Source: Mytilus edulis (Eukaryota). From it: a DNA stretch of 64,000 nucleotides. The stretch is from positions 7,316,001 to 7,380,000 of the forward strand of contig NC_092349.1 in the NCBI RefSeq assembly GCF_963676685.1, read 5' to 3'. Shown here piece after piece: positions 5,340 through 36,000 of this stretch. A model generated the notes under the pieces. It saw only the letters and a list, made by a program, of their open reading frames with translations, did no database searches and was not told where the DNA came from. Position 1 is the first letter of the stretch, and the number at the start of each line of letters is the position of its first letter. Position numbers and translations under genes: made by a program.

Positions 5340-6330
5340 TATCATTTTAAAAATGGAACAACTGAATGCATCGAAACTTTTTCAGTCCAATTTAGATAAA
5401 GGCATATGTTCTAAAAAAGTATCACATTGTTTAATTTTAATATGGCGTGCAAAATACAGTTAGGTTAGTTCGACTTTCTTTTTAGTGTTTTAAAGTATTT
5501 CAAAAGGTATGATGTGAGAGGTTCTTTGAAAAGAAGCATTGTGTATTGTATCAGTTTGGAAAAAATGGAGACAACTGAAAGTATCGCAGCTACTTACCAT
5601 TTTCCCTGAAACAAATAGTTCCTCCTCATAACATATTTCCGGGATATGTAAAGTTGTAGGATAATTTTTTTTCCAGATTATTTCGGATAAAAGCATTATC
5701 GCAATAATATTGCGTTGCTTTACCGTTATTTTCTGTGTATTTTGACGTGTTTGTATACGCCCCTGGCAAACGAATTTGAGGGTATATGCTAGGATCAACA
5801 TGTTCAAACGACTGTCTGTTTAGAACTGTTGAGTGTTGACAGTTTATGATGTGAGTAGTTGCAAAGATATATTTAAACAGAAAATGGAGACAACTGACAG
5901 TTTGGTAGCTACTTCCTCTTTCTATGAAACAGTTATTTTCTTTGTATGCAATATTTCTGGGATAAGAAAAAGAGCATTAAATGTAAAATTAGAGGCTAAA
6001 TGTATCAGACTAATTCAGATCAAGGTATAATCTGAGAAAAGACAATATGTTCTTAATGGTGTTTTGTTGAATGTGTTGCATTTTTAAATGTCTTGCAAAC
6101 TATTTGAAGGTATAAATCAGTTTTCCTCCCAATATACATGATATAACACGAAACAATGTTTCGTTTTGAAAAGAAAAGAGACACAACCGAAAACAGCGTA
6201 ACTTCCTCCTTTTCTTTATTTCACTGGCTACATACTTTTCTTCTCTAAAATATTGTCAAGATTAGATTATTGACATGAGAAATTGCAGATTAAAGGTAGA
6301 CCAATATAGACGAAGAATATATGATCTAAT
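5340..6330. repeat. Highly diverged tandem repeat, about 210-320 bp period, 3-4 units
   Basis: Anchor atgga(g)acaactga... at about 5353, 5566, 5884 and 6178; ttaaaggta / atatg.tctaatg motifs recur. Confidence 0.5.
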
Positions 6331-6611
6331 GGAGGAATTGCATTTTTTTAAATTTTAAGTTTTGAAGAAAACATAACAGCTGTTGATCGAATTTCCGATC
6401 AATGAGTACTCACTCTATTTCCAGGATAAAAGTATTGCAATAAAGTTGAACATAACACTCAAATTCAGAAGCAGTAACTTATAGCTTGCCATATATTTCC
6501 GAAAAAAATATTTTCATTGCATATTTCCGACAAGATTATTTTTTTCCCGTCAAACTAAATTTGCAAGCTTCCTCAAGTGAACAAGTGTCTCATAAGAGTC
6601 TGAATAGCTTA

Positions 6612-6821
6612 AGTAGTCAACTTCATACGTATAGATCACTTTTCCCCGCGTGTTTTTAAAAGATGACGTAATAATGCATATTACTGTTATCATGTCATAA
6701 TGCATATTGCTTATTTACTAATTATGTAATAATGCATATTGCATTAATTGCGTAATATTGATAATTGACTTCTTGCGTAATATTGATAATTGACTTATTG
6801 CGTAATAATGCATATTACAAG
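6612..6821 (+). repeat. Polinton left TIR
   Basis: agtagtcaacttcatacgtatagatcacttttccccgcgtg... is the reverse complement, with few mismatches, of 14661-14845. Has an internal duplication of ttgcgtaatattgataattgact. Confidence 0.92.
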
Positions 6822-7304
6822 TTTGATGCAATAATGTATTTTTTTATATGATTAATTGTAATATATGCATTCTGTAGTAAATAAAGACGTGATAATGGGA
6901 TATACGCAATAGTGCTATGTAATGAAATATCATATGCAACTGTAGTGCCAAATAAAAGAAAAGCAGTGCAGCAAATGCTAACGAGCAAAATGGGTGCAAC
7001 ACGTACTTAAAAAAAATTTTAATATGAGAAATTAGCCTATTAATTAGTACATTGTTTACGACTTGTTTTCACTCGACCTTTTTTGTCTTGTTTGCATAAA
7101 GATAATTATATGGCCTTGATATTTATCGATATGAATTTAGATTACCGGGCAAAAAGACAACACTATTTAGAATGGTTTGTGTTATGTTAATGTATTGTTT
7201 TTCTTCTTTCTTGACGTTTCTTAATAATTTTATTTTTGGCTTAAAGGAGAAAAAACAAGTAAATATATATTTTTATTACTATTAAAAGCAACATTCCACT
7301 GACA

Positions 7305-10300
7305 TCACATTCCATAAGGAACTGTTGTATAGTTGTCCTTGAGCACTATTTTATTGAACACGATTCTATAGTCCTTTTCTTCCACACATGTGATGATATC
7401 ACTGGATTTGACGTTTCTTCTAATTTTGTACTCGTCGGTCACTGTTATCGATTTCATTCTTCCCTTAACCATCTCTTTTACTATTTCAAAGTTCAGTTCT
7501 AGTGAATTCTTATAGTTCAACGTGATGCCACGTATTTTACAGCATGTTTGGTTTCCAGCTTTGTCAGGTTTTGTTAATTTGAACGCATAGTTCTTAGGCC
7601 CTCCACTTACAAACACTTCAATTTTATGTTTGGCAGCTCATCAGTCAAATCACCCAAATAATCTCCAATCATCGGTCGCCAATCGCCTGGTTTTGAAGCA
7701 AATATAATTGAATCAGTGTCGCAATAGAGTGATCCTAGGTGTTCAAGGTATTTGTACAACTGTAGTCAAGCTTGAGCCGTAGTGTATGCAGCAATTAGTA
7801 CATTAGTTTTTCCAGATTCTTCAACAAATTTTTCTTTATTTATCCATTGAAGACGAACCATCTCTTCTGATACAAACTAACATCTTTAACTTCCTGTCCT
7901 TCGCTTGTCAGTATGTCAAAATAAGTTGCTGCATCTTTGACATATGTCATCTTTGGTTCAAACGTTGTCCAAATTAACCCCAGAAGCTTGAAAAGAAAAA
8001 AAAAGTAATATTTATTTATCAAATATTTATTAATGTTTATATTTGAAGTATGTGTTTAATTTTGGTGTGTTTTATTTCTAACTTAGTATAAGATATTAAA
8101 TTCTTTACCTATTTAATATCAATTTGGCAATTTGTCGTAAACATGGATTCTCTTTAATGTTTTTCTCGTCCAGCCAGATTCCCTCCTTTTCTAAATAGTT
8201 CTTTATATATGTGTGTTTATCTTGGTCAGTCAAACACCACTCGGGCCAACCACTTGCCTCTTGTTTAATCTTCAAAAACGTATTTACGTATTCTGTGAAG
8301 ATTCCACCTTCTTTGGTATCAGGATTGTACTGTGATACTTCGTCAAAATGCCACACTTTATACATTTCTGTTATTGAATACCCTTTTGATACAGCTGTTT
8401 TTATTTTTACATCATAGTAATCTATTGTATCTCCTTTGGCTTCTATGTAAATTGTAAATGCCTCAGTTCGACCTACATAAAAGTCGTCTCGGGGTTCCAA
8501 TGGATCTTTAATGCCTTGATTTTTAACAAAATTCATCATCTGTTTATAACTGTTTAATTCATTGTCAAACTGGCATTCCCAAATCGATATATACTTATAA
8601 CCATCTCTTTTAAGATATTTCCTCTTGTCCATTGTTCGCAGGAAAAGATCGGCCATGGTGTTACCAGTTACTGGATTTACGGTAGATCTTCCAAAGCATT
8701 TTTCACAACCGTGCCAGAAACAACCATGAAATTCATATACTTCTCGTTCACCCTCTTCTGTTTCCCGACATCCATCTACCAGAAACGAACAAATTTGTTT
8801 CTCGCTTCCATTTCCTGCATGCATAATGTCGATAGTATCTTGTACTGACAAATATTTCAACCATTTCAAAGCTTTGATGGACTGCTTTTGGTCACATCTG
8901 TATCCATTAGGTGGTATAATACCGATACTTTGATGCTCCAAGAAATTTCTTCTAAAAACCAGGTTACATGTCGTGATGCTATCGTGATGCAGCTTTCGAA
9001 AGGGTCGATTCCATCTAAAGCGCCTTTCGTTGTTATATCCATAAAGATCTTTTTGAACTCTAAACAACCTTTTCGTAAAATATCCTCATCAGATCTACAA
9101 TATTTTAACAGTTCTTCTTGGAGTTTGAAAGGATCGTTTTTGTGTTTTTCATACCACTCCATAAATGTGGATCTTTTGTCCCTTGTCATTCCATCTGGAT
9201 TGTAGAACTTCAAATCAGGAAGATTCGGTAGATTTGTATTCGGTAGATTGAGTATTGAACAAGTGTTGGAAGAAACCTTTAACCATTTCCTTAAGACCAA
9301 ATGTTTTAGGAAATGTATCTCATGACATTGGTAGAAAATTAATCGAATCAATAAATCTAATATTGCACTGGGGAACGTCGATTGACATAAACTTGGATCC
9401 TGTAACAATTACCTCTGGCAATATAGCATTTTTGTATAGATATTGCAAGATATGATAGCTATCATAACCTTTAAAGTTGTGACATAGTACTTTTGATTCG
9501 GCAAACAACCAGCGACAAAAGTCGTCTCTTGAAGATTATCCACTAAATATATGTTCATGTTTACCACATGAATCACACTAACTGGTTTTGTCAACGATTG
9601 TGTCTTTGCACAATTCGCATATCTTGTGAGCATACATAAAGTTGGTATGTGCTGTCTAGATCCACACCAAGACTGCTTGCAACTTTTACATGCACATCCT
9701 TCGATGTTTTTTTTCGTACCCCATGTCACACTGTAAGACCTTGTCTTGTGTACATTCATAGTAAAAAAATATGAACGTTTTTGTATATTTCTTCTTTAGT
9801 TGTTCCCCATTTCTCCAAGCTTTGGCGTCATGCTGCACTGTATCTATATTGTCAGAGCATGCTGGTAACATTTACACAATCTTTACATGTCTTGCAATAA
9901 TGTTCACCGCATTATGATCTGTTTTATGTAGTTTTGTATATACAGACTGATTACACTTTCTGCATCTAAAGTTAGTGTAACAGGTTGATTTTCCTGTTGA
10001 AGTTTCCTGCTTATGCATTTTATAACATTTAGCACTTTTAAAGTATCTGTTACAATCATTACAGTATATCCAATCTTCATCAGTAGAGTCATGGGTTTTG
10101 TAACATTGGTGACAGACATTGTTACAGGAGTGATCTGCTTTATGATCGTACCCCTTGTTACATTTTGTGCAAAAAATAATTTTGACTGAGAAAAGCAGGC
10201 ATTGTTGTTATGACGTCAGAATAGTGATCTTGGAGGTAAAGGTAAATTTTCTTTTCTGCAGCTGGTCCTCCATATATTATGGCATTAAAATGCTCTTTAG

Positions 10301-11313
10301 AGACAACATGTATTTTGTAGCCATCTAAAATTCTCTGGAAGGTTTTAATCTCCTCTATTCCACGTCTTCAAAATGGAAAACCAGCTTTATTGTTCAACTC
10401 TTTGGCTAATTCCCCTTGTATTTTTCTGCCAAGTCGGATAGAATTCCATTTTTGTGCCCATCTAATCGAGCTTTAGCAGTGATAATCGCTCTGGCGCAAC
10501 CTAAATCATCATTGTTTTGGATTTGGAGGAAACATCGTTTTTCATTCAATGTCTTTTCTAAGTATTTCTAACATATTTACAACGCTTTCCAATACCACCA
10601 GATGGGAGACTTACATGAATCAGTCCAATTTCAAGCGTTTCATCTGAAACAAATTGTTTGTAGGATTGGAGAACTCGTTCTATTTCTGAGAGTAAGCGTT
10701 CGGTATGCAGTTGTGACAATTGAATAAACGGCAACGAGATTGGAAAGTCCAGTTCTGGAAATTGGACTGACAGTCGAACGAGATCAGTTGGATCCATAAA
10801 CTCTGTTTTTTTAATGATGGAATCGAAAAGCACTTTTAAGCTCTTTAAAATATTAGGAATTCCTCTTATGTCTAAATCTTTGAAGGTAACTTTGTATCGT
10901 GTTGAAGTTGTATTGAATTTTGGCATTCTATGTTCTCCCGTAACTTTTATGGTATACATATCTTTAGAATTATCGTTTGTTAATTTTCTTTAAACGGGTG
11001 GTCCTAATTGTTTTTGTACTTGTCGCTTTTGACCTCTTCCAATCTGACCATGCGTATGCCTATGGTGTAATTCCGGTTCGAAAAAGTGTTGAAAGCATAT
11101 GTTGCAACGATAAACGTTGACTCTGTCGTGTCTCTGTCTATGAGTGTCCAAGTTATCTTTTCTGTAAAAATTCTTATGACAAACATCACAGGAAAATAAG
11201 TCTCTATGCCCAAGTATTCTTTTGTGCTCATCTAATAGACTCCGTTTGGAAAAGACTGCCCCGCAATGCAAACATTCGTACATTTGTGACATCTTCCCTG
11301 ATTGACGATCCAT
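7305..11313 (-). pseudogene. polB: Protein-primed family B DNA polymerase (pPolB) with N-terminal C2H2 fingers, TP/vOTU-like region and internal Vsr-like nuclease domain; several frameshifts and stops, one intron (7987-8108)
   Basis: Fragments: 3 C2H2 fingers (10990-11313), in frame across one TAA with MYTIKV..LLSEIERVLQS; QNNDDLGCARAI; exonuclease FFYYECTQ, HNFKGYD, FIDSINF, KYCRSD; EVYEFHGCFWHGC..IWECQF; motif B spliced as IAKLILN/SFWG*FGQR; motif C LYCDTDSIIF; FVSGGPKNY, KIRGITLN, TVPYG end. Confidence 0.93.
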
Positions 11314-11509
11314 TCTTAAATGATGATTTCCTGTAGATTAAAGGAATATATATAAATGAAATGAATACACAGATCTATAAAACCAATGTGTCTTGATATA
11401 AACTGTCATATGAATGTTTGATTTCAAAGTGGAAAGATGTACCAGTGTCCTTATTGTTTAAAATCCTTTTCCAGAAAAGACAATATGTAAAGACATATAA
11501 AAAATAACC

Positions 11510-12993
11510 ATGGAAAGAATCAACAATACCTTGAACAGAAGGAACATTCAAATGCAGAAATCCTCTCTCCTTCAACATTAACACTTGAAGACAATGCCAT
11601 TTTATGTCACCCATTTACCATGATGTTGGCCGGACCTACAGGATCGGGAAAAACGTTTTGGATGAAAAAGCTTTTGGAGAGGGCAAGGAGTATGATAAAA
11701 CCATCGCCAGAGAGGTTAAAATGGTGTTATAAACGATGACAGTCATTGTTTACTGAAATGCAACATACGCTCAAGAACATTATTTTCGTTCAAGGGATAC
11801 CAGATGATCTTAACAACGCTTGATTTATATGCACTAAATACCCTAGTCTTGTCGTAATAGATGATCTTATGAAAGACGCAAAAAATAGTAAAGATGTGTG
11901 CGAATAATTTGTCAAGGGAAGTCATCAATGTAACTTGAGTGTAACGTGCATTGTACAGAATGCTTTTTCAAAAGGAAAGAAAAATAGACCGATGAGCATT
12001 AATAGTCAGTACATAGTTCTCTTAAAAAATCCACGTGATCAAGTAACACCTGCTGTATTTGCTAGACAGATGTATCCAAACAATTCAAAAAGATTCATAA
12101 AAAAATATATGGAAGGAGTTAAAAGACCACACGGCTACCTGTTTGTTGATCTAAAGCAGAACACATTAGAAGAAGAGAGATTAGAAATTGATATATTTAA
12201 TGATCAATACCAAAAAGTAGAGAGTTCGGATGTCATGATTGGTGGCGGTATGGCGCAGTATAAAAACGATGAAGGTAAACATATCGACCAGTTTGAAGTA
12301 AGAAGAACAAGCGAGCAGTCGCGTTTAGGAGACTATTCAGAACTTTTTGAAACTAAAGAAGAAAAAATGCCTTCATGTGACGAATGTGGATTGATGTTCG
12401 AAAACGTATCTTGTTTAATGAGGCATATTAAGAGATGGGTCTAGAAAATAACGATTAGAAGCGTAAATTCAACGAGGAATATGAGGATATTCCTTCAAAG
12501 AAATTCAAAAAAGAAATACAGATTGAAGACGGGGAGGAAGATGTTTTTAAGAAATTAGCTATATATGCAAGAGACGAGACAGAAGACCTTTTTGAAAAGA
12601 AAGTTGACAAGTACTTGAAAAATGGTATGAGTGAAACTGAAGCAAAACATAGAGCTAACCGAAAACTTCGACAAGATTAACTTGATAAGTTTATGTGGAA
12701 ATATGCAAACTTGGTACATTATATTTTACAACTTAGTGTTGGTAGATTGCATTTAAAGGTAGTAAAGTTTATTGAAAAACTGGTACAAGAAGGAACTGAA
12801 TATAAGAAAGCAAAAAAATGGCGATAAGAAAATACAAAAATGAAATTGATAATTATCTTGATGAAGTCATTGAGGAGGAAGAAGAAGGAGAGGATGGGGA
12901 GCAAGAAAAGGGTGATGATGATGATGAAGATGAAGAGGAGGGAGATGAGGAGGGTGATGGTGATGAAGAGGAGGGAGATGAGGAGGGTGATGG

Positions 12994-13048
<55 letters not shown>

Positions 13049-13105
13049 GAAGAGGAGGAAGATGAGGACATTGATGATGACAAGGAAGAGGAGGAGGAGG
13101 ATTAG
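11510..13105 (+). pseudogene. A32/FtsK-like genome-packaging ATPase continuing into a C2H2-type finger, a helical domain and an Asp/Glu tail
   Basis: Walker A HPFTMMLAGPTGSGKT (about 11608-11656), Walker B LVVIDDLM, GSHQCNLSVTCIVQN, INSQYIVLLKNPRD, PHGYLFVDL. The same ORF continues to CDECGLMFENVSCLMRH; after a frameshift and a stop it runs to the poly-D/E tract ending 13105. Start is approximate. Confidence 0.88.
12870..13102 (+). repeat. (GAT/GAG)n trinucleotide expansion encoding the acidic tail
   Basis: Direct reading. It explains the spurious poly-M, poly-S and poly-H ORFs in the track. Confidence 0.9.
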
Positions 13106-13237
13106 AACTATTAATGTAAATCATTTTCGCTCTCTCGTTTTTATGTTCGCTTCAGGAGGAGGAGGAGGAGGAGGTGGGATTATGAATTGAAAACTAAAAT
13201 TATGTTTCATTTTATTTTTGACATTCAACCAGTGCAC

Positions 13238-13321
13238 ATGGCGTCATATTTTGTGAAATGGCTTTATTGGCCAGATATCTTTTCATCATGGGTTAACACC
13301 CGCGATTTACAAGACTTGTAA
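13238..13321 (+). pseudogene. C-terminal chromodomain remnant of the Polinton RVE integrase
   Basis: Translates as MASYFVKWLYWPDIFSSWVNTRDLQDL*, matching the Y.VKW.GW....NSW chromo motif that ends Polinton integrases. No DDE core was seen upstream. Confidence 0.75.
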
Positions 13322-13546
13322 ATACTGTATTACTAGTTTAATAAAATATGTTTTTCTTGAAAAGGTTTTGTTGTCTTTGTATTTGAAATATTTGATCGGT
13401 TAAACAATTTATATAATAAATTTTACCTTAAGCAATAAATTGTCAAAGTTATTCCATACATCAATTCCCCGTGTATGTCGTCGTTAATTACACATTTAAA
13501 TGTGGTGCAAATATTAGCAGGCATGCGCATTTAAATTGATTTTAAG

Positions 13547-13702
13547 GAATTCAAATAATTCAACAGAAGAATTCAAATAATCCAACAGAAGAATTCAAAT
13601 AATCCAACAGAAGAATTCAAATAATTCAACAGAAGAATTCAAATAATGTAGCAATAAGAATTCAAATAATTTAGCAATAAGAATTCATACAATTTAGCAA
13701 TA
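13547..13702. repeat. 22-23 bp minisatellite gaattcaaataat(t/c)caacagaa, about 7 copies, inside the Polinton
   Basis: Directly visible tandem array. Confidence 0.9.
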
Positions 13703-14660
13703 CGAAGTCAAGTATGTGTGAAATATTTTGTTTTCAAACTGGTAATTACAAAGGCAGCTGGTGTATTTTAACTAGACATAATTAAGTGTCTAAAGAGATA
13801 ATCATCTGTTCATTGGCTTTTATTCATAGGAACTACTCAATTTTAAATCATGATCTTTGATGTTAATCATGGCGTGACCCGCTAGTTATATGGTTGATTA
13901 AGGACATTTGTCTTTAGAAGCTACAGTTTCTACAGAAAATATCTACTTTAATTTCGCTATAAGTATATATACGAGGGATTTTAAATGATAACTAGAAAGA
14001 GGTTTTGTTTTTAATAATTTTTAGGATTAATTAAAAAAGATAATCTAAATTACATAACGGTAGTTTATTCGTTGAAATAAAATTCCAGTTTATTTTAAAC
14101 TTTAAAAAGTATCTAATTATTTATTGAATTAAATACGAAAATTAAAACCAGATGCACATAGTCAATTTAAAAGAAGTGTGATCAATTAAACGGCTTTGAT
14201 AAATATTCAACTTATATTCAAAGTTTGATTATATATACTACAATTTGTCTTGTAAGTGACAAAGCGTCAGGCCAGGTGACGACAATTAACAATAAAATCC
14301 GTGTTGAGAGCTGCAAGGACAGAGGTTTTCATAATCAAGTGTGAAACAAATCATTTAAATCTTTATCGTCAAGCTACAACGAAAAACAATAAATTAAACG
14401 ATACCTATTAATAATAATAATGATTGAAACCTAATTTAATTCAACAGAGCACTATATTTTTACATGTTTATATTATCTCTTAAGTATGACATTCTTCTAA
14501 TCATTTAAATATTAAATTAAAAGGTCGAGTGTACTAATTAGTCTAATTACTCACTATGCATATCATTTAAATATTAGATTGAAAGGTCGAGTGGTCTAAT
14601 TACTCATTATGCATATATTACACATAAATCCTATTAAAAAAAATCAGTATTACATCTAAA

Positions 14661-14845
14661 CTTATAATATGCTTTATTACGCAATAAGTCAATTATCAAT
14701 ATTATGCAATTAATGCAATAAGCATCATTACACAATTAGTAAATAAGCAATATGCATTATGACATGATAACAGTAATATACATTATTACGTCGTCTTTTA
14801 AAAAAACGCGGGAAAAAGTGATCTATACGTATGGAGTTGACTACT
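14661..14845 (-). repeat. Polinton right TIR
   Basis: ...cgcgggaaaaagtgatctatacgtatggagttgactact, inverted copy of 6612-6821. Confidence 0.92.
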
Positions 14846-16471
14846 AGCTCACTTGTCAAAAATATATATTGCATTGCTGATCATTTATCAGTTTCTACTC
14901 TTTTTTTTTTTTTTTTTTTTTTTTTTATTGTTGAAGAAAAATGTACGAAGACGACGACGCTCAGTGATGACAATAACCATGCTGATATGCGTTAAAAAAA
15001 AACAAAAAAAAACTGCGATACACTTATGCACGTATATATGGTATATTTTTTATAAAATGTATGAATCAAGGATATCTTATATAAATTTTCGATTTCTACT
15101 AGATCCGTAGGTGAGTGAACCAAAAAAGGATAGTACCATGCCGTACAATACTATTTGTATATAAAAGAAAGAAGATCTAATTTTCTCAACAATTTTCTTA
15201 ACATGTAATAATCCTTTCTGCACATCATCCGGTTGTGTTATACAACTGTGGAAATTTTCATCAAATATATGCCGACCCGTTTAGGCGGAAGTTACGCTTA
15301 CAAAGCACACCGGTAATTAAGCAGACGAACATACAGATTTATTCGTGTATGTACATATCAAAACTTTGTTTGCGGTGGAACAACTATTTTTCCCGTTGAT
15401 TGATACAAAAATAGAATACGAACTTTAAAACTGCAAGATTGATGGAAATAAGATTACATTTGGTTTCCTTTATTCATAAACATTTCTTATAAAGTTGATT
15501 TGATCTTTTGTGTGCGTTTTTGGGTAGAAATATGCATTTTATTTAAATAGCTATACTCCTTAAAAACTGTGCATTCAATATTTACATTATGGTATTTTCT
15601 AGATAAAGAGTAAATACATTTGTTTTTGAGAGAAACGAATTGCAATTGTCTCCCTTTATATCAAATACAAATTTTTTAATGAATTCTCCCTTTACCAATA
15701 ATTAATTCCATATTTGTGCATTTTATTCCAAAAATATTTATCAATTTATTACATACCCTATTTGAAGACTCACTATACAATATTTTGTTTGTTGATCTAT
15801 TTTAGAAAAGTTTTGTTTCCTGGTTAAGGATAATGGATACAGGTAAATGTCCAGGTTAAGTGTTATTCATGGACAAGTGTATGACAAGCGTAAGAGGGAA
15901 TAACAAGAATTCAAGAAGGAAAACGCAATGAAATTAGATCACTAATTACATTGCAATTGTAATCAGCTATAACAAATTGTTAAGATAAAGTAGTTAAGAA
16001 CAAACATTTCAGCCGTTTTTTTCCAGTTGCCTTCTTTGGTTTGCTTAGGGTAGGGGAAACCACTACTTCAAAAATAAGCCTGGCTCCAACTTAACAATTG
16101 CTGATATTTTAGTTAATAAAAACGTTCGGACCTGGTGACAAAAACGAAAAGCATTCCTACTGTCCGCTACGACTCACTTACGAATACTAAAGTTACGACC
16201 TAGCTGTAACAAAAAAGATTTTTTAAACATTATAATGGTATGTCTTTAACTAGATACCAATTCATCAGCTTTATATTTTCTTTATATCAGTAACGGTTAA
16301 TTTAGGTCACATATTTTTGGAATGGGGGAGGGGGGCACTGAACTGGCCAGGGAGGAGGTCTCAGGGGAGGTTATTATATAATAAGGCAGATGGAAATCGT
16401 ATGTTTATTATCGCTATTTAGGTTGCAATTTTTCTTGTCACAAAAATGCTTAGAAGCTACAAATTTTCACA

Positions 16472-20941: not shown

Positions 20942-21627
20942 GTTATAAACTAGATGATGTTCTTTTACTAAATAATTCAAAATTTGGTGACTACGTGGAT
21001 ATATCCCATCGAACTAGAAATAAAGGATACTACATATACATGTACAGTAAAGTCGGCCTCAAATCTTGACTTACATCTAGAAATTGACAATAAGGGTCGG
21101 TCGAAAACAAAACTTTACGACAAAACAGATGATTTCAGCTTTCCAATTGTGAACTTTCCATTTCTAAGAAGCAACATTCCAGCAGCACCTGCATACGGGG
21201 TATATATCTCCCAATTGATACGATATTCCCGTGTTCGCATTTTTTATCATGATTTTCTTGAGAGAGGGTTGCTGCTCACAAGGAAGCTATTAAACCAAGA
21301 GTTCCAAATGGTGAAGTTAAAATCATCCTTTCGTAAATTTTACGGACGAAGTCACGAGTTGGTTGACCGTTACGGAATAACCGTTTCACAGATGATATCG
21401 GATATGTTCCTTACGTCGTAACTACATTCCCATTCCCTTTCATGAATGTGACCTACCGTATTAGACTATTTACCGGAATTGTTATCACATAAGCAACACG
21501 ACGGGTGCCACATGTGGAGCAGGATCTGCTTACCCTTCCGAAGCACTTGAGATCCCTCCTAGTTTTTGATGGGGTTCGTGTTGTTTATTCTTAAGTTTTA
21601 TATGTTGTGTCAAGTATACTATTGTTT
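20942..21627 (+). mobile_element. Penelope-like retroelement, RT C-terminal/thumb fragment plus 3' region (family A)
   Basis: ORF 20984-21421: IYPIELEIKDTT..ASNLDLHLEID..TKLYDKTDDFSFPIVNFPFL.SNIP..PAYGVYISQLIRY; degenerate 'IDDV' RT motif just upstream. Confidence 0.85.
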
Positions 21628-21845: not shown

Positions 21846-23641
21846 ATGCAGGCAGAGGAGACATTATTGTTACCTAGTGGTTTGCACTTGCTTGCAGACA
21901 CAATTTATCTAACTGAACACCACATGATAATTTCTGATAATATAATTTTGAATCATCATTAAGTATGTTTACAGACAATTTATCCTATTCATTTGACCAC
22001 TTTAAAACCTCGTACTGTGCTACATGTATTATGTTATTGCGAACGGATATAAAAAAAAAACAATCAACAAAATACAAAATACATAATTTAAGCAGTTTCC
22101 GTCCTTTTAAATGTTTCGATGAGGAAGAACTGGACAAACCTGTAATCACTTTTGTTTAAGTGTGTTTATTTTTTCATCACTGAGTTTAATACACAACATC
22201 ATATTGATGAATATTTAGATCGACTGTTTTTCCTTCAATTATAAGTAGACAATAAAATCATTAATCGGTGATTATCAGCAATACTAAAGTCTCAATAAAA
22301 TGAGCAAATAATGAATGATCCACATAGGTCAAATGTTGTAGTATGGTTGTGTTTTTGTATCGACTATCAGGGATTTGATGTCATTGCGTTCTATATAGAT
22401 CCTAGATGTGGACATTTTATATATTTGCAACCAAGAAGACAATTGAAATGTGTTCCTATCCTCGTGTGGGTTATTTTTATCTATTTTAATGTTAAATGTA
22501 ATAAATGAACTTTACATATTATTTATCTTGGAGAGAAATCAGCTTATTTATCATAATTCCGAACATGTAATTAAATAGAATTGATCTTTCTCGTAAAAGA
22601 GGGGCGAAAGATACCAGACAGACATTCAAACTCATAGATCGAAAAAAAACTGACAACGCCATGGCCTAAAAAAGAAAACGACAAACAGTCAAATAATAGT
22701 ACAGAAGACACACAATAGAAAACTAAAGACTAAGCAACACGAACCCCACCAACAAAGCGGAATTTATTGATCATTTTTATTTATTGATATGATACCTCAA
22801 TGATATGTTTTACATAAACTAACAAGAAACGTTGTGCGTGTATCAAGTTAACCACATTAGTACTATATGTTTTTCTTTTGATACATTCTTATTTTTGTAT
22901 TGACCTTTTATGGTAAACATAAGAAGATATGGTATGATTTTCAATGCGACAACTTTTCACAAGAGACCAAATGACACAACATTTCACACTTATATTCAAC
23001 GTATGTTCTTGTATATGTCATCATTTCATAAATAAAGCAAATGCTTACTTTCATAAGCATAATCGTCTGCCTTTTCCTCTAGTTTATAATGAATATTTTG
23101 TAACAGTGATTTGTCATTTAAAGTAAATTTAAACAAGTAGTAATAAAATGCATCAAAAACAATTCATGAATTTTCTCTCACCTTGAACTCTCAAACCACA
23201 TCAACAATAAAAAGTAATGCCAAAATGTCATTGCCTCTAGATCGTTAATGCGTCAGGAGCTATATCAACAGAAACGACATAAACAGAATAATCAAATACA
23301 ATTTTGTATTAAAGGAAAGTGAACCTTAGTTTCTTAATAATTTTCTTTATTCATAGTAAAAAAAACACCTAGTTAAAATGAAGTGATACATTTCAACATT
23401 TAAGGTATTGGTTAGTATTAATAATTTTCCCAATGTAAAAACAAAAGGCTATTTTTAAGATAAAATACTGCCTAATTACATAACTTCGTGTCCAGATTTC
23501 TGAAATATGTCATGAAAAAACTATTCTAGATCTGTAACGAATTTTTGATTTAAGACACAGCGTGTCATAAGAAAGAATTTTATTTCTAACGATATTCCTT
23601 CTTAGGAAAGCCAACTTTACATTTATTGGTCCTTGTTTCAG

Positions 23642-24034
23642 GTATTCTGGCCGTGAACATTTTCATCAACCAAAACATCACTGGACTTGTTGGCAAAAAT
23701 GACACACATTTAACATGCTCTTTTATCAACGATTATAAAACAAATTTTATCAATGCAGCCATCATTGCAAGGAACAAAAATGGGACTTTCTGCAAAAATG
23801 AACCGATTGCAGTATTTCAACCTGACAAAGAAGCAATGCTTCCTCTATCAGGTGATTATCTCTCAGGAAGAGTGACACTGACAAATATAACAAAAGTATC
23901 GACTACGGCGACTTTGAGATTCGATGACCTGCAATGTGAAGATGAAAAGGACTACATGTGCATTGCTTACTACATGGACAAATTTGGTGTTATAATCACA
24001 GTTGAATCAGAATCTACCAGGGTATTGGTTAAAG
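23642..24034 (+). CDS. Exon: Ig V-set domain
   Basis: tttcag| acceptor and |gtaagt donor; HLTCSF...YLSGRVTL...ATLRFDDLQCEDEKDYMC (D-x-x-x-Y-x-C). Confidence 0.9.
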
Positions 24035-27000
24035 GTAAGTTTTTTTTCTCCATCGGTATTTTCTGTGGACTTTACCTTAAAATTCTGAAGCTATTTTTTT
24101 AGCATTTAACTATTATGTTTCCCTCAGTTTTTGTTTGGTACCCCGATTTTGTTTTTTGTCCATGGATTTATGAGTTTTGAACAGCGGTATACTTCTGTTG
24201 CCTTTATTTACCTTAAAAATTTTAACAGTTGTGATTCGTATGTTGTTCGGATTGTATAAAACGATCAATAAAATTTGGATTTTTAAGAAGTAAAAAAAAA
24301 AGGATATAAGGATTGAGTCAATGACACGCATGATAGAAAAGTTTATCACATGCTTTCCATACACATGTTTAAAAAAAAAAAAAAAAACGTAGAACACTGG
24401 TTCTCCGTTAAAGCGCCCAACGTCAGCATGGTCAAAGTAAAAAATGATAAAATATAAATTGCATCAAAACCTGCTTATAAAGAACATAGAACATCTTCAT
24501 AGTGTATTCTACCCACCCTATAAATTTCAGCATGTAATATTTCACCGTTAATTTGTAATGATCGAGACAGTTTAGATGAAAGAAAATTAAAAAAAAGATA
24601 TATTTAACGTCCTTTTATTTCCTTTGACGTCGTGATTTTCAGTACTGAAATGCTTAACAATTTTTTTTTATTAATTCACGTAAACTTTTATTTCTTGTTT
24701 CTCGTTTTTCTTGTTAGTTTAAATTAAGCATAATATCCAGTCATGTCTGCATTATTATATAAGTCTTTTTTATCTCTTCAACCCAATTTAGGTGAGAAAT
24801 CTGACTTTCGGCTTTTTCCGTGTGAACAAGTATGCTAAACAATCCAGTCAGGATGTCAGATCTGTACAAAGCAGGATAAATATTGATATCGTATCATATC
24901 GTATTATCATGCTTTCAACCCTTATATGTATATAATTCGCCAATGAATCCTCCTTCTTTTCATCTTATTTACCAATCTGTGCTACCATGACTTATTACTG
25001 ATGTGGTCATACTTATACCGTAAACAAATATATAACTTTTAGACTGTTTCAATTTCAGAATGCACACGAATGGCGTATAACGTTTGAATCCCTTGCTTTA
25101 GTCTAGTACTATTTTGAAAATTTCTTTCGAAGCCGAAACTCAACTCTTGTATCTTTGATGGGTTCAATGTTTCGGAAATTTGAAAAAAACAATAAGGAGA
25201 GAGACGAGAAGTGTCTATTAGTTTTTTGTGCAGACCAAGGGGAGTATGTCCTTAAAATTGAACATTCTAATATAACAATTAGAAGATGTGGTATGATTTT
25301 AAATGAGACAACTCCAGTATACATTTAACAAATCAAGATAGTCGGTAGAGTAAATTCGTTACATAGTGTGTTAGTGACCTAATACGATATATACAGGATC
25401 AGTAAATTCCATATGAGTTTTTATTTTGGCTCAAACTCCATTATGGAATTTACTAACCCCTTATATATCGTATTACATGTAGGTCACTAACACACTATGT
25501 AACTGACAATATCTGACCAAAGTTTAAGCGAATCACTTATTTGATAATGTTTATAGTTTTTATAATACTACAATTTACAAATATAGTATATAAAATTTAT
25601 TGGTATATGTTTTCTGAACGCACAGTTGCAAATATTTCATGTAGATTTATGACCGGGAGATGAATATTTAAAAAAAAAATAAGATCTTACATGCGTTGTC
25701 GGTGATAAATAATTTAAAAAGGTTTAATATAAATACATAAAAAAAAACAAGAGACAACCATAAACGACCAAATAAACAGCTTCTTCTTATAGATCCGCTT
25801 ATGCTAGTAGAATTATGCATCCTATTCTGCTTGAATATCAGATAGTTATTTGAAATAATTCAAGATATATGAGATGGTTTACAAATTAAAAAATAAAGAC
25901 AACATCCCCTCCCCCAACCCCCACCCCTAAAAAAAATAAAGGAAAAAGGCAATCAAGTTAAGAATAGAAATAACATTATTTGGTTGAAAGGTAAAAAAAA
26001 TGAAAATTGAAAAAAGGTAAAATAAAAATAACAGAAATAAATGATTTGAAGAATAATGAAACCTTGCGTCTTCTGCATATAAAATTTATTATTGACAATA
26101 TTCTAGTAGATCATTCCCGATAAAATGTTTAACTTGCAAATTGGTAATAAACGCCACTGTTCAAATGCAATTACGATGTATATTTCATACATTCATAAGC
26201 ATCGGTGTTTTTTGCTAAACTCCCGATCTTGCACGAGTTAACGTATCATTTCGTCTCCTATTGCAGGCAAATTTAACCTTACATCCTCCTCCTGCATTGT
26301 GTCAACAATTATTTTTATAGTTTTACTCACTTTGAAAAAATAGTTTGTGACATATGTCAGAAGCAACAAAAAGATCTGCAATAGTTGGTGAAAAACAAGA
26401 TAGAAATTCCATGCGTCCGAAGCGTTTTTGTTTTATCTATCTTCATCATTTACGCCCAGCGACGAGTATTTGAAATATAAGGATGTCAAAGAAATGAATG
26501 AGTTGATGAGCTATATGACGAAAAGTACTGTGACAAAAATAGTCAAATCAGTCGATTGTAACATTGATTGGTTGAGGTGACACCTTAGGTATCTTTATAA
26601 TTCTAAAACCTATTACTGGACAATTGATTGGAATTGTAAGAATTTGCAAAATCAAAACATTGTTATAATTATTGCGTCCTCAGTTTCATACTGATGCGTG
26701 AGGACGGATGACATTGTCTTCGATTTTTTTGGGGGTATACTATTTCATTTAGTACCAAAAAATATTAAATAAATTTTAATATGCTCCCGAAACAATTGAT
26801 TGATAAGCAATGTTTCTTTCTATATTGTGTTGGACAGATAAGTAATTAAGGATAACCATCTATTTTTAATGATCAAATTTTTATTCTCTCCGATTTCAGG
26901 TATCTTTCATGTCGGTTAACTACATCGGTACTGTCTCTGAACGTTCAGCTCCACATTACTATTACCCCAGATCACAAGGAAAATATGATCAAATATATCT

Positions 27001-30000: not shown

Positions 30001-33000
30001 AAACATAAGTTGAAAAGATTTGATTGCAATAAAAAGATTTGATATTAATTAGGTGAAATAATAAAACAGGACCCAAACCACAGTTTGGTGTAAAAATGTT
30101 GGTTGACCTATTCAATTTTCCATTGAAATACCTATAATATAAAAAGGAAGATGTGGTATGATTGCCAATGAGACAACTATCCACAACAGACCAAAATGAC
30201 ACAAATATTAACAACTATAGGTCACTGTACGGCCTTCAACAATGAGCAAAGCCCATACCACATAGTCAGCTATAAAAGACCCCGATAAGACAATGGTGTG
30301 TATAGAATTATGAAAATTTTACTTCATATGCTTTCCATTCGTCTATATAGTTTTGTTTAGTAATTGTTTAAGAAGAGTTTCCATAGACCATCACACACCA
30401 AAATATTCCGAATATCATTTTAAACAAATATCAGAAACCAAGATCAAGACTTGATGAATTACATCATTCCCATGCCCCCTCTTTGTAAATTAAAGAAGTT
30501 TTATGTTTCTAAACTTAATGCGTGTTTTAAAAATTTCTTGTGGAGAGTTTTCTCATTGGAAATCACACCACATTTTTTTTTATAATTAAAGTTTGATGCA
30601 ATTTTCAAACTTCCGGTTATCAAGGCTGAACAATGTTTGCCGTAATTAATTTCATTAGTGTCAGGTGGTAAGTCAAATTGGTCTTTTTATTCTGTATATT
30701 TGCTGGATAAAACTTAAGTTGACAAGGAGGATTTATGTATGGATCCTTAAAGAAAAGTGTCAAAGGGACACAAGCTGTCAAATTCATGTTCTCCGAGTTG
30801 ACTCACATTCTCACGTTTGATTTATAACAATGTAAAATATTTATCCAAACTATTAACAGTCTGTAATCAACAATGATCAGGACATGGGTATGATGGCACG
30901 TAGCTTCGTGTCGTGTGTATATTAGTCCAGACGCCATATAATTAACTATCGAGTTGAACGCCAAAGTCATCTCATGACCATAAAAACGATGTAAACATAA
31001 ATATATAAATAGATTCAGGGAACTCGTGTTTTGGGATTTTATTTTATGTCCGTTTAATTTCATGGAATAGTTATCAAAGGTACCAGGATTATAATTTAGT
31101 ACGCCAGACGCGCGTTTCGTCTACATAAGACTCAATATCAAAATATTTATAAAGCCAAACAAGTAAAAAGTTGAAGAGCATTGAGGATCAAAAATTCCAA
31201 AAAGTTGTGCCAAATACGGCTAAGGTATTCTATGCCTGGGATAAGAAAATCCTTAGTGTTTGGAAAAATTCAAAGTTTTGTAAACAGGAAATTTAGAAAA
31301 ATGACCACGTTATTGATATTCATGTCAACACTGGAGTGTTGACTACTGGGCTGGTGATACCCTCGGGGACGAAACGTCCACCAGCAGTGGCATCGACCCA
31401 GTGGTGTAAAAGTTATCAAAGGTACCAGGATTATAATTTAGTACGCCAGACGCGAGTTTCGTCTACATAAGACTCATCAGTGACGCTCATATCAAAATAT
31501 TTATAAAGCCAAACAAGTAAAAAGTTGAAGAGCATTGAGGATCCAAAATTCCAAAAAGTTGTGCCAAATACGGCTAAGGTATTCTATGCCTGGGATATAC
31601 AGGTAAATAAACCAAAAACATAGAATACTTATTTATGTTTTTGGTCTTTTTACCTGTATAAGAAAGATTTTTTTGTGGATCGAATAAGTCAGTGAATTGA
31701 TTTACGTTTATTTCTCGTTGACATTCGTTTCCTTTAAATGACTTTACTCAACAATTGACCTGTTATTCATCTATAACTAAGGGTTTGATTGAAGTTCACA
31801 TGAATACGGATTCAATGAGATCGAATTATTCACTTGTAAGTGAATAATTCATCATGAATGTTTCTAATAAAATTGAGAATGGAAATGGGGAATGTGTCAA
31901 AGAGACAACAACCCGACCAAATAAAAAACAACAGCAGAGGGTCACCAACAGGTCTTCAATGTAGCGAGAAATTCCCGCACCCGGAGGCGTCCCTCAGCTG
32001 GCCCCCAAACAAATATACACTAGTCCAGTGATAATGAACGCCATACTAATTTCCAAATTGTACACAAGAAACTAAAATTAAAATAATACAAGACTAACAA
32101 AGGCCAGAGGCTCCCGACTTGGGACAGGCGCAAAAATGCGGCGGGGCCAAACATGTCTGTGAGATCCCAACCCTCCCCCCATACCTCTAACAAATGTAGA
32201 AAAGTAAACGCATAACAATACGCACATTTAAATTCAGTTCATGAGAAGTCCGAGTCTGATGTCAGAAGATGTAACCAAAATAAAATAGAAAATAAACAAA
32301 ATGACAGTAATACATAAATAACAACAGACTACTAGCAGTTAACTGACATGCAAGCTCCAGACTTCAATTAAACTAACTGAAAGATTATGATTTCATCATA
32401 TGAAATCAGGCACAATCCTTCCCGTTAGGGGTTTAGTATCATACCATCATAACATATATGAGAAGAACATAACCCGTGTCATGCCAACAACTGTTTTTAG
32501 AATCAATGTGTTTAGTTCCGATGCAAAGACCTTATCAGTGACTCAATATTAACGCCAAAATATGCAATCTTTAATGACTTGACAACAGTATCGTAATTAT
32601 ATCCCTTCTTAATAAGTCTATTCAAAGGTTTTGTAAGTTTCTGAGGTGAATACTGACACCTTTGTGCTTTATAAAGAACATTTCAATAAAAAATTGGATG
32701 TGAAATACCTGAACGTATTAGAAGTCTGCATGTTGAGCTATATTTACGAATGATGTCTTTATATCGATGATAAAATTTAGTAAATGTTGATATCGAAAAC
32801 CCTGGTGTAATAATTTTTTCAGTAATACATAAATTTCTCTCGTTAAAATCTAAAACATTGTTACATACACGAGCGAATCGTACAAGTTGAGATATATAAA
32901 CACCGTAAGATGGTGACAAGGGAACGTCACCATCTAAAAATGGATAATTAACGATAGGAAATGAAAAATCATCCCTTTTATCATAAATTTTTGTATTCAG

Positions 33001-36000
33001 CTTTCCATTAGTGATATAGATATCAAAATCGAGAAAAGGGCAGTGGTCATTCTAATCTTATTTTGAAAAGTTTAATCATACTGGCAGCTAAATATGCTAA
33101 AAGCGAATAACTATTTCACTCTTTTACTTTTATTAATGATTTAAGAAAAAAAATCATATGTTAGATTTTTTATATATCTCGTAGTTTATGCCACTTTAAG
33201 GGCTTACTATCGATAAGATTATAATGAGTTATAAAACTGGTACCTTTAATAAATATTATGTATTTTTCCAATTTGTAAAGAATAGTAATGTACAGTTATA
33301 GAGGTATTACATTGATTTTAAACTAAAGTAATCATTACATTACATGTAATTGTATACAGAAAAAAGTAAAATCACAAAAAAACTGAACTCCAAGGAAATT
33401 TCAAAACGGAGAGTCCCTAATCAAATCAAAAGATAAAACACATGAAACAAATGGACAACGACTGTCATATTTCTGATTTGGTACAGGCATTTTCTTATGG
33501 TAAATCGAACCTCTCACTTATATGACAGTCGTATCAAATTTCATTATATCGACATCGATGCCTGAAAAATAAACATAATAGGTAAAATTGTCAAAATATG
33601 ATTATAGCAGTCATCCTCGTGTCACAATCTAAATTAGAACAAAAACAAACAAATTTGATAAAGAAGCACAAAAAGCATATACCAAGTTTTACAACTACAT
33701 TCATTGCTAATTTATTATTGTATTTCATCTATGTATGTTATATCAACCCATAAGGAATTGCAGTATTTTAAATTTTTTGACAGAAATGCGTATTACAAAT
33801 TTCTTTGCAATACATGAGAAAATGTAATATTACACTGCATTACAATTAAAAATTACCATTTACCCAGACCAGCACGAAGTAATAGAATGCTACTTTAACA
33901 AAAAGGAAATATATCACATTGCAGTTAAATCACTTACAAGGCTTACTATATACAGATTATTGGAATGAAATAAGCAAGGATCGTCTATAAAATTATTAAA
34001 CATGGTTCGGCCTAACTTATTAAATGGTGTTTATGACTTGTCTTTATCCTCATCTCATAGAAATTGTAAATAGACTGGCTTATCGCGTAAAAAAGTTACT
34101 GGAAACATGGAAGTATTATATTGACAGGAACTACAACGATTAATTAGCATTTATTTATAACCCGGGTAGCCCTGTAGAAAATATACGGAAACTGTCTAAT
34201 TAGTACGCTGTCGTTAATTTCTTTTGTGACTATCTGCGATGCCGCAGTCATAAATTGACCAGAGATACTTCTTATCAATCACGTGGTTTTAATCGAGACA
34301 GCTTTACAATATTACCTGTCGGAAAACACCTTTACTTATTTCAATCGAGTCGGTAGACCTTTATTCGTGAACAACTTATTTAAACAAATCGACTGATGCA
34401 TAAAAAATGAAAATCGGCCCAGAATTATTTATTCTACAACGATCTGAAATAGTGAGTAACATTATTTTATTAGTTTGTGGGTGAAGTTTAAATCGCGATT
34501 AAGGTGTGTTCCGGTTACCGCCGGTTAACAATAAATATATTTGATAAATATTAAAACTGTGAAGTTTAGAGTAATACATATGGTTAAGTTACTAGATAAT
34601 CCTGGAAAGTAGAAATTTCCAGTTAACAATACGAAAATTAATCGAGCAAGTACCAATCAATAAAGTACAGCAGAAGAAAACCGAGATCTAACTACGTTAT
34701 ATAGATATTTATATAATACATTTCTGTCCCCTAAAATATGTTATCACTATCCGACCAAATGAAACCGTCCAAATGATACTGGTAAATATTATTGAACAGT
34801 CGCACAAGAATTTGTACAATGTCACTATACAAATACTTGAGTCGCAGTACTAAAAAAAAATTCAACACATCGGGGTTCAGCTGAACATTCGTATATACCA
34901 ACCAATGATCTTACCCTACATTTATTTAAAATCTCTTTGATCTTTTGATTTTATCAGAACGATCATTTACAATCGTCTTAAATATGCAGGAAATGTGTGC
35001 CACTCAATGGAGTAAACAGTAGTTATTATATAATCACAACTTGCGATATATATTACATATAGTGCAATTTCTACCGAAAAAATAAATAAATAAAAACGGG
35101 GCATTTATTCAATAAATTTGGTACAAATTTCCATCGTCAACGTGTTTTTCTATAGAATTAATGATGACTCGCATTAATCCATCAATCACTCAATCGGCAT
35201 AGTTAGGTAACGGAATCTGCCGAAGTTTGCCGATTGCTGTTTCCTAAGAATTTATCACAACTTTTTTTCGATTTCTTCGTTTATTTCCGTAATCCCGAAA
35301 TCAACCGAGAATGACAATATTGTAGGGCACCACATGCTGCTATGTAAATAACGTGCCATGTTTCAACATAATTAACATGTCATTAAATTGGGCGCGGCAT
35401 CGCAGATGAAACGTTTGAAGTCGGGTCGTAGTAGTTCCTGTCAATATAATACTTCCATGCTGGAAATAACACAAAGTATTAATTTAAATATTCAATTTTT
35501 ACTAAGCGAATAAGGGTTCAATTGCTTATTTTGTTGATGCCGAAATATTTCCATTTGTTCTGAAAATTTGAAATATGTTTTTGACGACGTTTGCTGCTAT
35601 TATAGTAGAAGTGGGACATTTAAAGACGTATCGTATCCGTATCTGATACGTTGACGTATCTAAACATATATATGGGTTATTATTCAAGTGATTATTTACG
35701 TGCTTAAATAGTAATCGAGAAAAGTGGAAAGGAGATGGTGAAAAAGAAAGGGCAATGCAAATGGTTGATCTCTTTTATTTTTAATATATAAATTGTTCGT
35801 TTAATAAGGTTGAAATAATGTTTAATTTATGTATTTTTTGTGTTTACATACTTGTTTATTGGGTCAAAATCTGGATTTTTGGTTTATGACCCCTTCTGTA
35901 GCCATTTTTGTACGACCTTTTAAAACTTCAATTGTATCGAAACTACAGATATAATGAATAATATAGATAGGCCATTTTGTGTATATACAAGGGGAAAACT

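Follow-up and report, generated by a model that had tools for sequence, protein, structure and literature searches.

Introduction

The window analyzed here, a 64,000-nt stretch of Mytilus edulis contig NC_092349.1, contains a Polinton/Maverick element whose gene encoding protein-primed DNA polymerase B (pPolB) is broken within catalytic motif B by a short AT-rich segment with the ends of an intron. This raises the question of whether the host spliceosome removed the segment in the element's lineage, and, if so, how old such an intron is and what it may do for a virus-like transposon.

Published accounts describe genes without such introns. Vertebrate Mavericks have no introns in the genes that intact elements carry, with Kapitonov and Jurka (2006) cited for the same statement (Barreat and Katzourakis 2021, PMC8097293). 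Endogenous viruses are stated to lack introns (Bellas 2023, PMC10120064) and are treated as intron-free (bioRxiv 2025.04.19.649669). The accessible text of the adintovirus paper does not mention splicing (PMC8502044), and that of PMC11296320 discusses only self-splicing introns. A pPolB survey required ORFs of ≥900 aa and mentions no spliceosomal introns in its accessible sections (Jeong et al., bioRxiv 10.1101/2023.08.22.554363); under that requirement, multi-intron pPolB genes would drop out. Because the assumption of intron-free genes and a filter for long ORFs are built into surveys of Polintons and endogenous DNA viruses, lineages that carry introns would be counted as decayed or overlooked. 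Our literature search turned up no account of pPolB in animal Polintons with conserved spliceosomal introns; outside its scope lay the founding paper, two reviews and Repbase, any of which may record spliced Polinton genes.

A Decayed Compact Polinton in the Window

The element was a decayed 8.2-kb Polinton/Maverick (6612–14845; Table 1) bounded by terminal inverted repeats (TIRs) of 171 nt each. Its pPolB was broken into about 20 frame segments with several stops and a 273-nt deletion at 8406/8407, and a Pfam search with these fragments gave no match. Domains were recognized in a relative on contig C2, with PF03175 on its pPolB (E 1e-36), PF00665 on its rve integrase (E 4e-14), of which the window holds only a remnant, and Pox_A32 above cut-off on its ATPase, the match being weak in the window. 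The hallmarks of Polintons/Mavericks were found, namely a protein-primed PolB, an rve integrase, a packaging ATPase, and TIRs with a 6-bp target-site duplication on either side. The copy in the window is a fossil without any function of its own, and cannot itself need splicing.

Table 1. Features of the Polinton/Maverick element in the window (positions are those of the window).
Feature	Position	Strand	Remarks
Target-site duplication, left, 6 bp	6606..6611	+	matches right at 5/6
Left terminal inverted repeat	6612..6782	+	starts AGTAGT
pPolB exon 2: rest of motif B, motif C YCDTDS, C-terminus; decayed	7305..7986	-	in-frame stop 7976-7974
Predicted GT-AG intron, phase 2, motif B Ser codon	7987..8108	-	same position in L020-L022, L080, L081, L083, L087
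pPolB exon 1: zinc fingers, exonuclease, Vsr-like HGCFWH stretch, motif A, first half of motif B; decayed	8109..11313	-	PF03175 match on C2 relative
Putative acceptor-like site before pPolB start codon; possible leader intron	11331..11360	-	
Packaging-type (A32/IVa2-like) ATPase, zinc fingers, acidic tail; decayed	11437..13105	+	Pox_A32 in C2 relative
rve integrase gene remnant	13200..13321	+	~1 kb missing at 13245/13246; PF00665 in C2 relative
Right terminal inverted repeat	14675..14845	-	starts AGTAGT; 94% complementary to left
Target-site duplication, right, 6 bp	14846..14851	+	

Copies on contigs C1, C2, C3, C5, and C10 of the same genome had the same three-gene plan, with pPolB, the zinc-finger/acidic-tail ATPase and the integrase between TIRs, in 9–11 kb. 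Neither an ORF nor room for capsid and protease genes was found between the TIRs of the window, C1, C2, C3, and C10 copies, and C5 had the three-gene plan without them as well. This compact capsid-less layout was common to intron-bearing and intronless subfamilies (copies on C1, C2, C3, C5, and C10; L049–L068). Elements without a major capsid protein are also known among other Polintons, nine of which lost protease and ATPase together, whereas the 9–11 kb mussel family keeps its ATPase (Krupovic et al. 2014, PMC4028283).

The HGCFWH stretch lay between the exonuclease and polymerase domains; it matched Vsr weakly (E 0.52), and a PDB search with it gave no match. The mollusc host, the position of this stretch and the weak Vsr match are shared with the pPolB2 of molluscs and marine nematodes that carries a VSR nuclease insertion (Jeong et al.), which suggests, as far as so weak a match can, that the mussel gene belongs to that VSR-bearing type. 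A 22-nt tandem repeat (13547–13656) separated the right TIR from the integrase remnant, and recurred in the C5 copy. In the C3 copy, an insertion of 280 nt immediately ahead of the pPolB start (L055, 4528–4808) shared sequence with a host repeat at 31063–31134 of the window.

A Probable Spliceosomal Intron in Motif B

The interrupting segment, which the initial annotation had read as a very AT-rich intron of 122 nt, was exactly as described in position and sequence, with GT...AG ends and a length that is not a multiple of three. Exon 1 ended with AAT AG at 8109, followed by GT at 8108–8107 (GTAAAG), and the 3′ end of the segment was a pure pyrimidine tract (14/14) with AAG closing at 7987, after which the gene resumed with C TTC TGG. 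The GC content of the segment was 0.16 compared to 0.37 in both flanks. The break fell in phase 2 of the Ser codon of motif B, KxxxNS/xWGK (the slash marks the break), and its two sides were the halves of the motif as seen in continuous relatives (KLMLNSFWGKFGQR). Removing the segment restored collinearity, so that the sides abutted exactly as in motif B of 26 continuous loci of the same genome. The rebuilding of the KxxxNSxxGK motif that splicing would bring about, with a stop in place of K, was in this way borne out.

The U2-type signals (GT donor, pyrimidine tract, AG acceptor) were all present. Five relatives had a CAG or TAG acceptor; that of the copies in the window, C2, and C3 was AAG, an uncommon type. 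Candidate branch-point words of the form YTRAY occurred at -36 and -47 in the window; they are common in AT-rich DNA, and were absent in L081. A DNA search for the 122-nt segment gave matches in pPolB copies only, and none outside pPolB. A group I/II self-splicing intron or an introner, for which a conserved RNA core, an ORF, or repeated near-identical copies would be expected, is improbable, the segments at this position being 71–196 nt long, AT-rich and unalignable between lineages. Judged from sequence comparison, the segment is very likely a real and old host-type spliceosomal intron.

The Same Break in Relatives

A protein search of the mussel genome gave 60 matches, from which 30 loci were fetched, and the counts given here cover those 30. 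The motif-B intron was present in four of them (window, 122 nt; C2, 173 nt; C3, 173 nt; C5, 196 nt), while 26 were continuous through motif B. A donor-pattern search of the same genome returned nine matches, including the four known copies; a reversed control gave four. In metagenome contigs the acceptor pattern was found at eight loci, five of which were pPolB genes with the acceptor at the motif-B position, and four of these five also had the donor, giving introns of 158, 115, 169, and 71 nt with a GC content of 0.20–0.37 compared to 0.45–0.57 in exons. The metagenome matches L082, L084, and L086 were dismissed as chance matches. Viral contigs had no match to the acceptor pattern, none to the donor pattern, and no relative in a protein search; none of eight pattern matches in prokaryote genome contigs was a pPolB.

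The matches listed in a protein survey comprised 120 of 209 short homologues, 83 of which reach motif B, and 120 of 1309 long ones. At least 23 of these 83 listed short homologues ended with N-R and a stop or short tail, which is the signature of an AG/GT donor; 18 diverged after SxWG (one of them, P0270, probably through a mere frameshift), three ended there, 28 continued and 11 were otherwise broken. Among the 120 long homologues listed (of 1309), four ended at the donor and two broke after SxWG. Database proteins display the donor signature and not the DNA, and the proteins are not all independent, P0204 being the L080 element itself and P0263 a Mytilus relative. In an ENA record, the two exons stood as distinct open frames, 1,185 and 214 residues long. 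Gene models from NCBI, which are predictions, joined the exons at this junction (P0001, P0121–P0123, P0125, P0130, and P0132).

The segment is not the private insertion that had been considered from the outset, with the same break in four of the 30 own-genome loci and in four metagenomic ones, and its position was conserved to the same base and phase in distant Polinton pPolB genes.

Selection on the Flanking Exons

The C2-type and C5-type subfamilies were sisters (support 92; 96 with P0220), and their synonymous differences were saturated (pS of 0.80 upstream and 0.83 downstream of the intron). Their pN was 0.185 upstream (95 codons) and 0.152 downstream (110 codons), with amino-acid identities of 68 and 75%, respectively, the downstream codons being no less constrained than the upstream ones, and their introns could not be aligned (z 0.3). 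In the downstream exon of L080 and L081, dN was 0.06 and dS 1.5. An exon that lies behind a frame-shifting, stop-laden insert and is still under selection implies that the insert must be removed, i.e., spliced. Between the window and C2, dN was 0.033 and dS 0.13 upstream of the intron; with dN far below dS, the window's lineage also diverged under selection before the copy died. The window intron was 83% identical to the C2 intron over aligned bases, with many gaps, and the flanks were 94–95% identical. A conserved position, a diverging interior and flanking exons under purifying selection were thus found together. On these comparisons, it is highly probable that the window's lineage spliced the motif-B intron.

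RNA at the Site

The site was compared with four of 24 listed RNA runs, which gave thin cover, X1 alone covering it. No spliced junction 8109/7986 was seen in X1, in which one contig ran 39 nt into an intron and none skipped it; the initial annotation had looked to such spanning reads, and none was seen in the four runs, one of them with cover. The contig that reads into the intron may be unspliced RNA or DNA. Another X1 contig began at 7988, a start that would be expected where spliced and unspliced paths part, although other causes are possible and the sign is weak. X24 gave no reads.

That the segment is an inactivating AT-rich insertion, intron-like in appearance and never spliced, would agree with the dead state of the window copy and with the lack of a spliced read. 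It is, however, scarcely credible given that unrelated inserts, all GT...AG, occupy the same base in distant lineages, with downstream exons under purifying selection, and we regard this reading as largely refuted by the comparative evidence.

Other Intron Sites and Shifted Positions

Introns were not confined to motif B. Only junctions checked by eye were used, as an automatic intron scan also scored junctions in an intronless copy. The L080 gene had five GT-AG introns with open exons in its last ~770 residues. Donors at other sites were found in 12 of the 26 own-genome copies without the motif-B intron; in the other 14, none of the four donor patterns occurred within the 3.3 kb retrieved. 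One intron, at motif A, was common to L100, L103, and L080, another, at DYLG, to L080, L081, and L085, and the EFxG and motif A positions were common to mussel families and distant metagenomic elements. Within the mussel genome, further Polinton families (L097, L100, L103, and L106, on C7, C11, and C12), which also have a protease and a capsid-like ORF, had pPolB introns at EFxG, FFGGRT, and motif A, with EFxG in three registers.

Several sites existed in neighboring registers. Those at EFxG were 0 (L080 and L100), +1 (L106), +2 (L097), and +5 nt (L087), those at FFGGRT 0 and +4 nt, and those at motif B 0 and about +8 nt, where 17–18 proteins break after SxWG. Proteins with the second motif-B site, ~8 nt downstream (the P0222–P0253 group, P0082, and P0106), fell mostly into a single clade with strong support, which has soft-coral proteins among its members; this site is known from protein break points only.

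Some intron-bearing families had an adenovirus-type protease (Pfam) and a capsid-like ORF (among its atlas neighbors, 30% of members carry a DJR-like domain). The idea that introns mark capsid-less elements was ruled out, because a capsid gene is missing from the intronless C1 and C10 copies too, and because introns occur in families that have a protease and a capsid-like ORF.

Origin of the Introns

The carriers of the motif-B intron were scattered over a tree of 76 rows, on which parsimony required 15 changes, at least five of them forced by strong branches; five second-site rows were labeled continuous in this analysis, which leaves the first-site count unaffected. A single clade of carriers was rejected (p-AU 1e-57) in a 28-row subset whose rows were chosen after the trees had been seen. 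The trees were built from 182 columns with quick searches, and parsimony on the 76 rows did not distinguish many losses from many gains.

The reading that we consider probable from these comparisons is an old spliceosomal intron that was inherited, precisely lost in many lineages, occasionally shifted by a few bases, and routinely spliced. It is preferred because distant elements share several positions together and because of the +1/+2 ladder in a G run. Precise loss could occur through recombination with cDNA made by enzymes of host retroelements, and the shifts of 1–8 nt would represent intron sliding. For an integrated element, host RNA polymerase II would make the transcript and the host spliceosome would remove the introns, and carriers would depend on the nucleus for a polymerase with motifs B and C. 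The proposal that this lineage needs host splicing for its polymerase is supported for the carriers, which would need it for both motifs.

A real intron could also be the product of many separate gains within the same short stretches, either at proto-splice sites (AG/Y, G/GT) in conserved motifs or through a targeting intron-generating element. The scatter of carriers among continuous relatives, the unalignable introns of different lineages and the neighboring positions 1–8 nt apart agree with this, and continuous copies often hold G-GTAAG exactly at the second site. Yet at least five separated groups have the break at precisely this base and phase, and AG/Y serves poorly as a proto-splice site. 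Distant elements have several positions in common (L080 with L100/L103; L080, L081, and L085), which is simpler as inheritance, and the +1/+2 ladder resembles sliding. Introners do occur inside dinoflagellate eupolintoviral proviruses (PMC12166617), a precedent for gain and for spliceosomal-type introns inside Polinton-like elements; those introners are copies of active intron-generating transposons, whereas the pPolB introns described here cannot be aligned with one another and keep a fixed position across distant lineages. Repeated gain is, on balance, unlikely, and inheritance with loss and sliding remains the preferred reading.

Regulation and Possible Benefit

The initial annotation also proposed a tissue-specific or latency switch. 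In Drosophila, the third intron of the P element is its last intron, its germline-specific splicing is regulated, and its retention truncates the key enzyme. A comparable switch in the mussel element would give a polymerase-dead protein of ~1,180 residues when the last intron is retained, and the replicase when it is spliced in the germ line. The geometry would allow this: the mussel lineage has no coding intron besides this one, which is thus also the last, and the frame meets a stop at the donor or shortly beyond it, so that a retained intron would cut the protein short ahead of motif C. The single RNA-labeled contig at the site is unspliced; it may, however, be DNA. What the two have in common is that keeping the last intron would shorten the key enzyme, while regulation is established for P only. 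Against a switch, the intron interior is not conserved between sister subfamilies, intronless sister families persist in the same genome with young copies (TIRs 99.5% identical), and relatives carry two to five introns at other motifs, like ordinary intron content. Neither spliced nor tissue-resolved RNA was seen, and with no spliced RNA in the four thinly covering runs, the switch is unsupported; we consider it very improbable.

Another lead comes from silencing. In human cells, the presence of introns works against HUSH silencing (PMC8770142), and TASOR-like proteins are present in invertebrates (PMC10578480). One partial DUF3715 match was found in the mussel genome, which could equally be TEX15-like. 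Escape from a HUSH-like silencing of long intronless transcripts is a possible benefit of the introns, and is offered as a lead only. In its broadest form, the proposal would be an overlooked marine-invertebrate branch of Polintons, both capsid-bearing and capsid-less, with ancient catalytic-motif pPolB introns that slide, are lost wholesale, and are kept to license nuclear expression, through HUSH-like escape or germline-restricted splicing; as a whole, this is rather doubtful. Were introns to license expression, the sister families with and without introns that reside together in a single mussel genome would offer a natural way to test the intron's benefit to a DNA virus-transposon.

A Candidate Acceptor Upstream of pPolB

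The second acceptor that had been suggested ahead of the start codon is present, as an AG at 11332–11331, 18 nt before the ATG at 11313, and is still a candidate only. Its tract has 11 pyrimidines of 14; in the host flank, 88 of the 2185 YAG sites (4%) reach that level. The acceptor-like site was kept in the C2 and C3 copies, and similar sites occurred in C5 and in an intronless C1 copy. A comparison of the copies found no donor common to all of them.

The intronless C1 and C10 copies shared the word GCATTATGGGTAA shortly before the pPolB start (L062, ~5600–5720; L066, ~5520–5600). In C1, this word was followed by a strong acceptor-like tract, and a tiny leader exon is possible there.

Relation to Known Elements

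The mussel elements share pPolB, the rve integrase, the packaging-type ATPase, TIRs, and the 6-bp duplication with Polintons/Mavericks (Eupolintoviridae, adintoviruses; PMC8097293). They differ from the vertebrate Mavericks described in the same source in that pPolB is split by GT-AG introns and in that the window's family has no capsid or protease gene. Fixed introns imply that elements without an RNA replication stage were expressed through the host nucleus over long times. With its patchy intron presence and shifts of 1–8 nt, pPolB is a compact system for the study of intron loss, parallel gain and sliding, to which the window adds a selection test, co-resident sister families with and without the intron, and a ladder of shifted positions.

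Other Sequences in the Window

Outside the element, open stretches on the minus strand at 47247–58123 (DWAMKFLP, WSDNAACY, and EAQNGKGPCDR) looked like exons of a large DDE-type transposase, which we take to be Academ-like; they had no Pfam match. Fragments at 20972–21421 and 32683–33051 resembled the C-terminal part of Penelope-type retroelement proteins. On the plus strand, 23590–24102 and 38596–39189 were exons of a probable host gene with immunoglobulin domains, with a weak V-set match.
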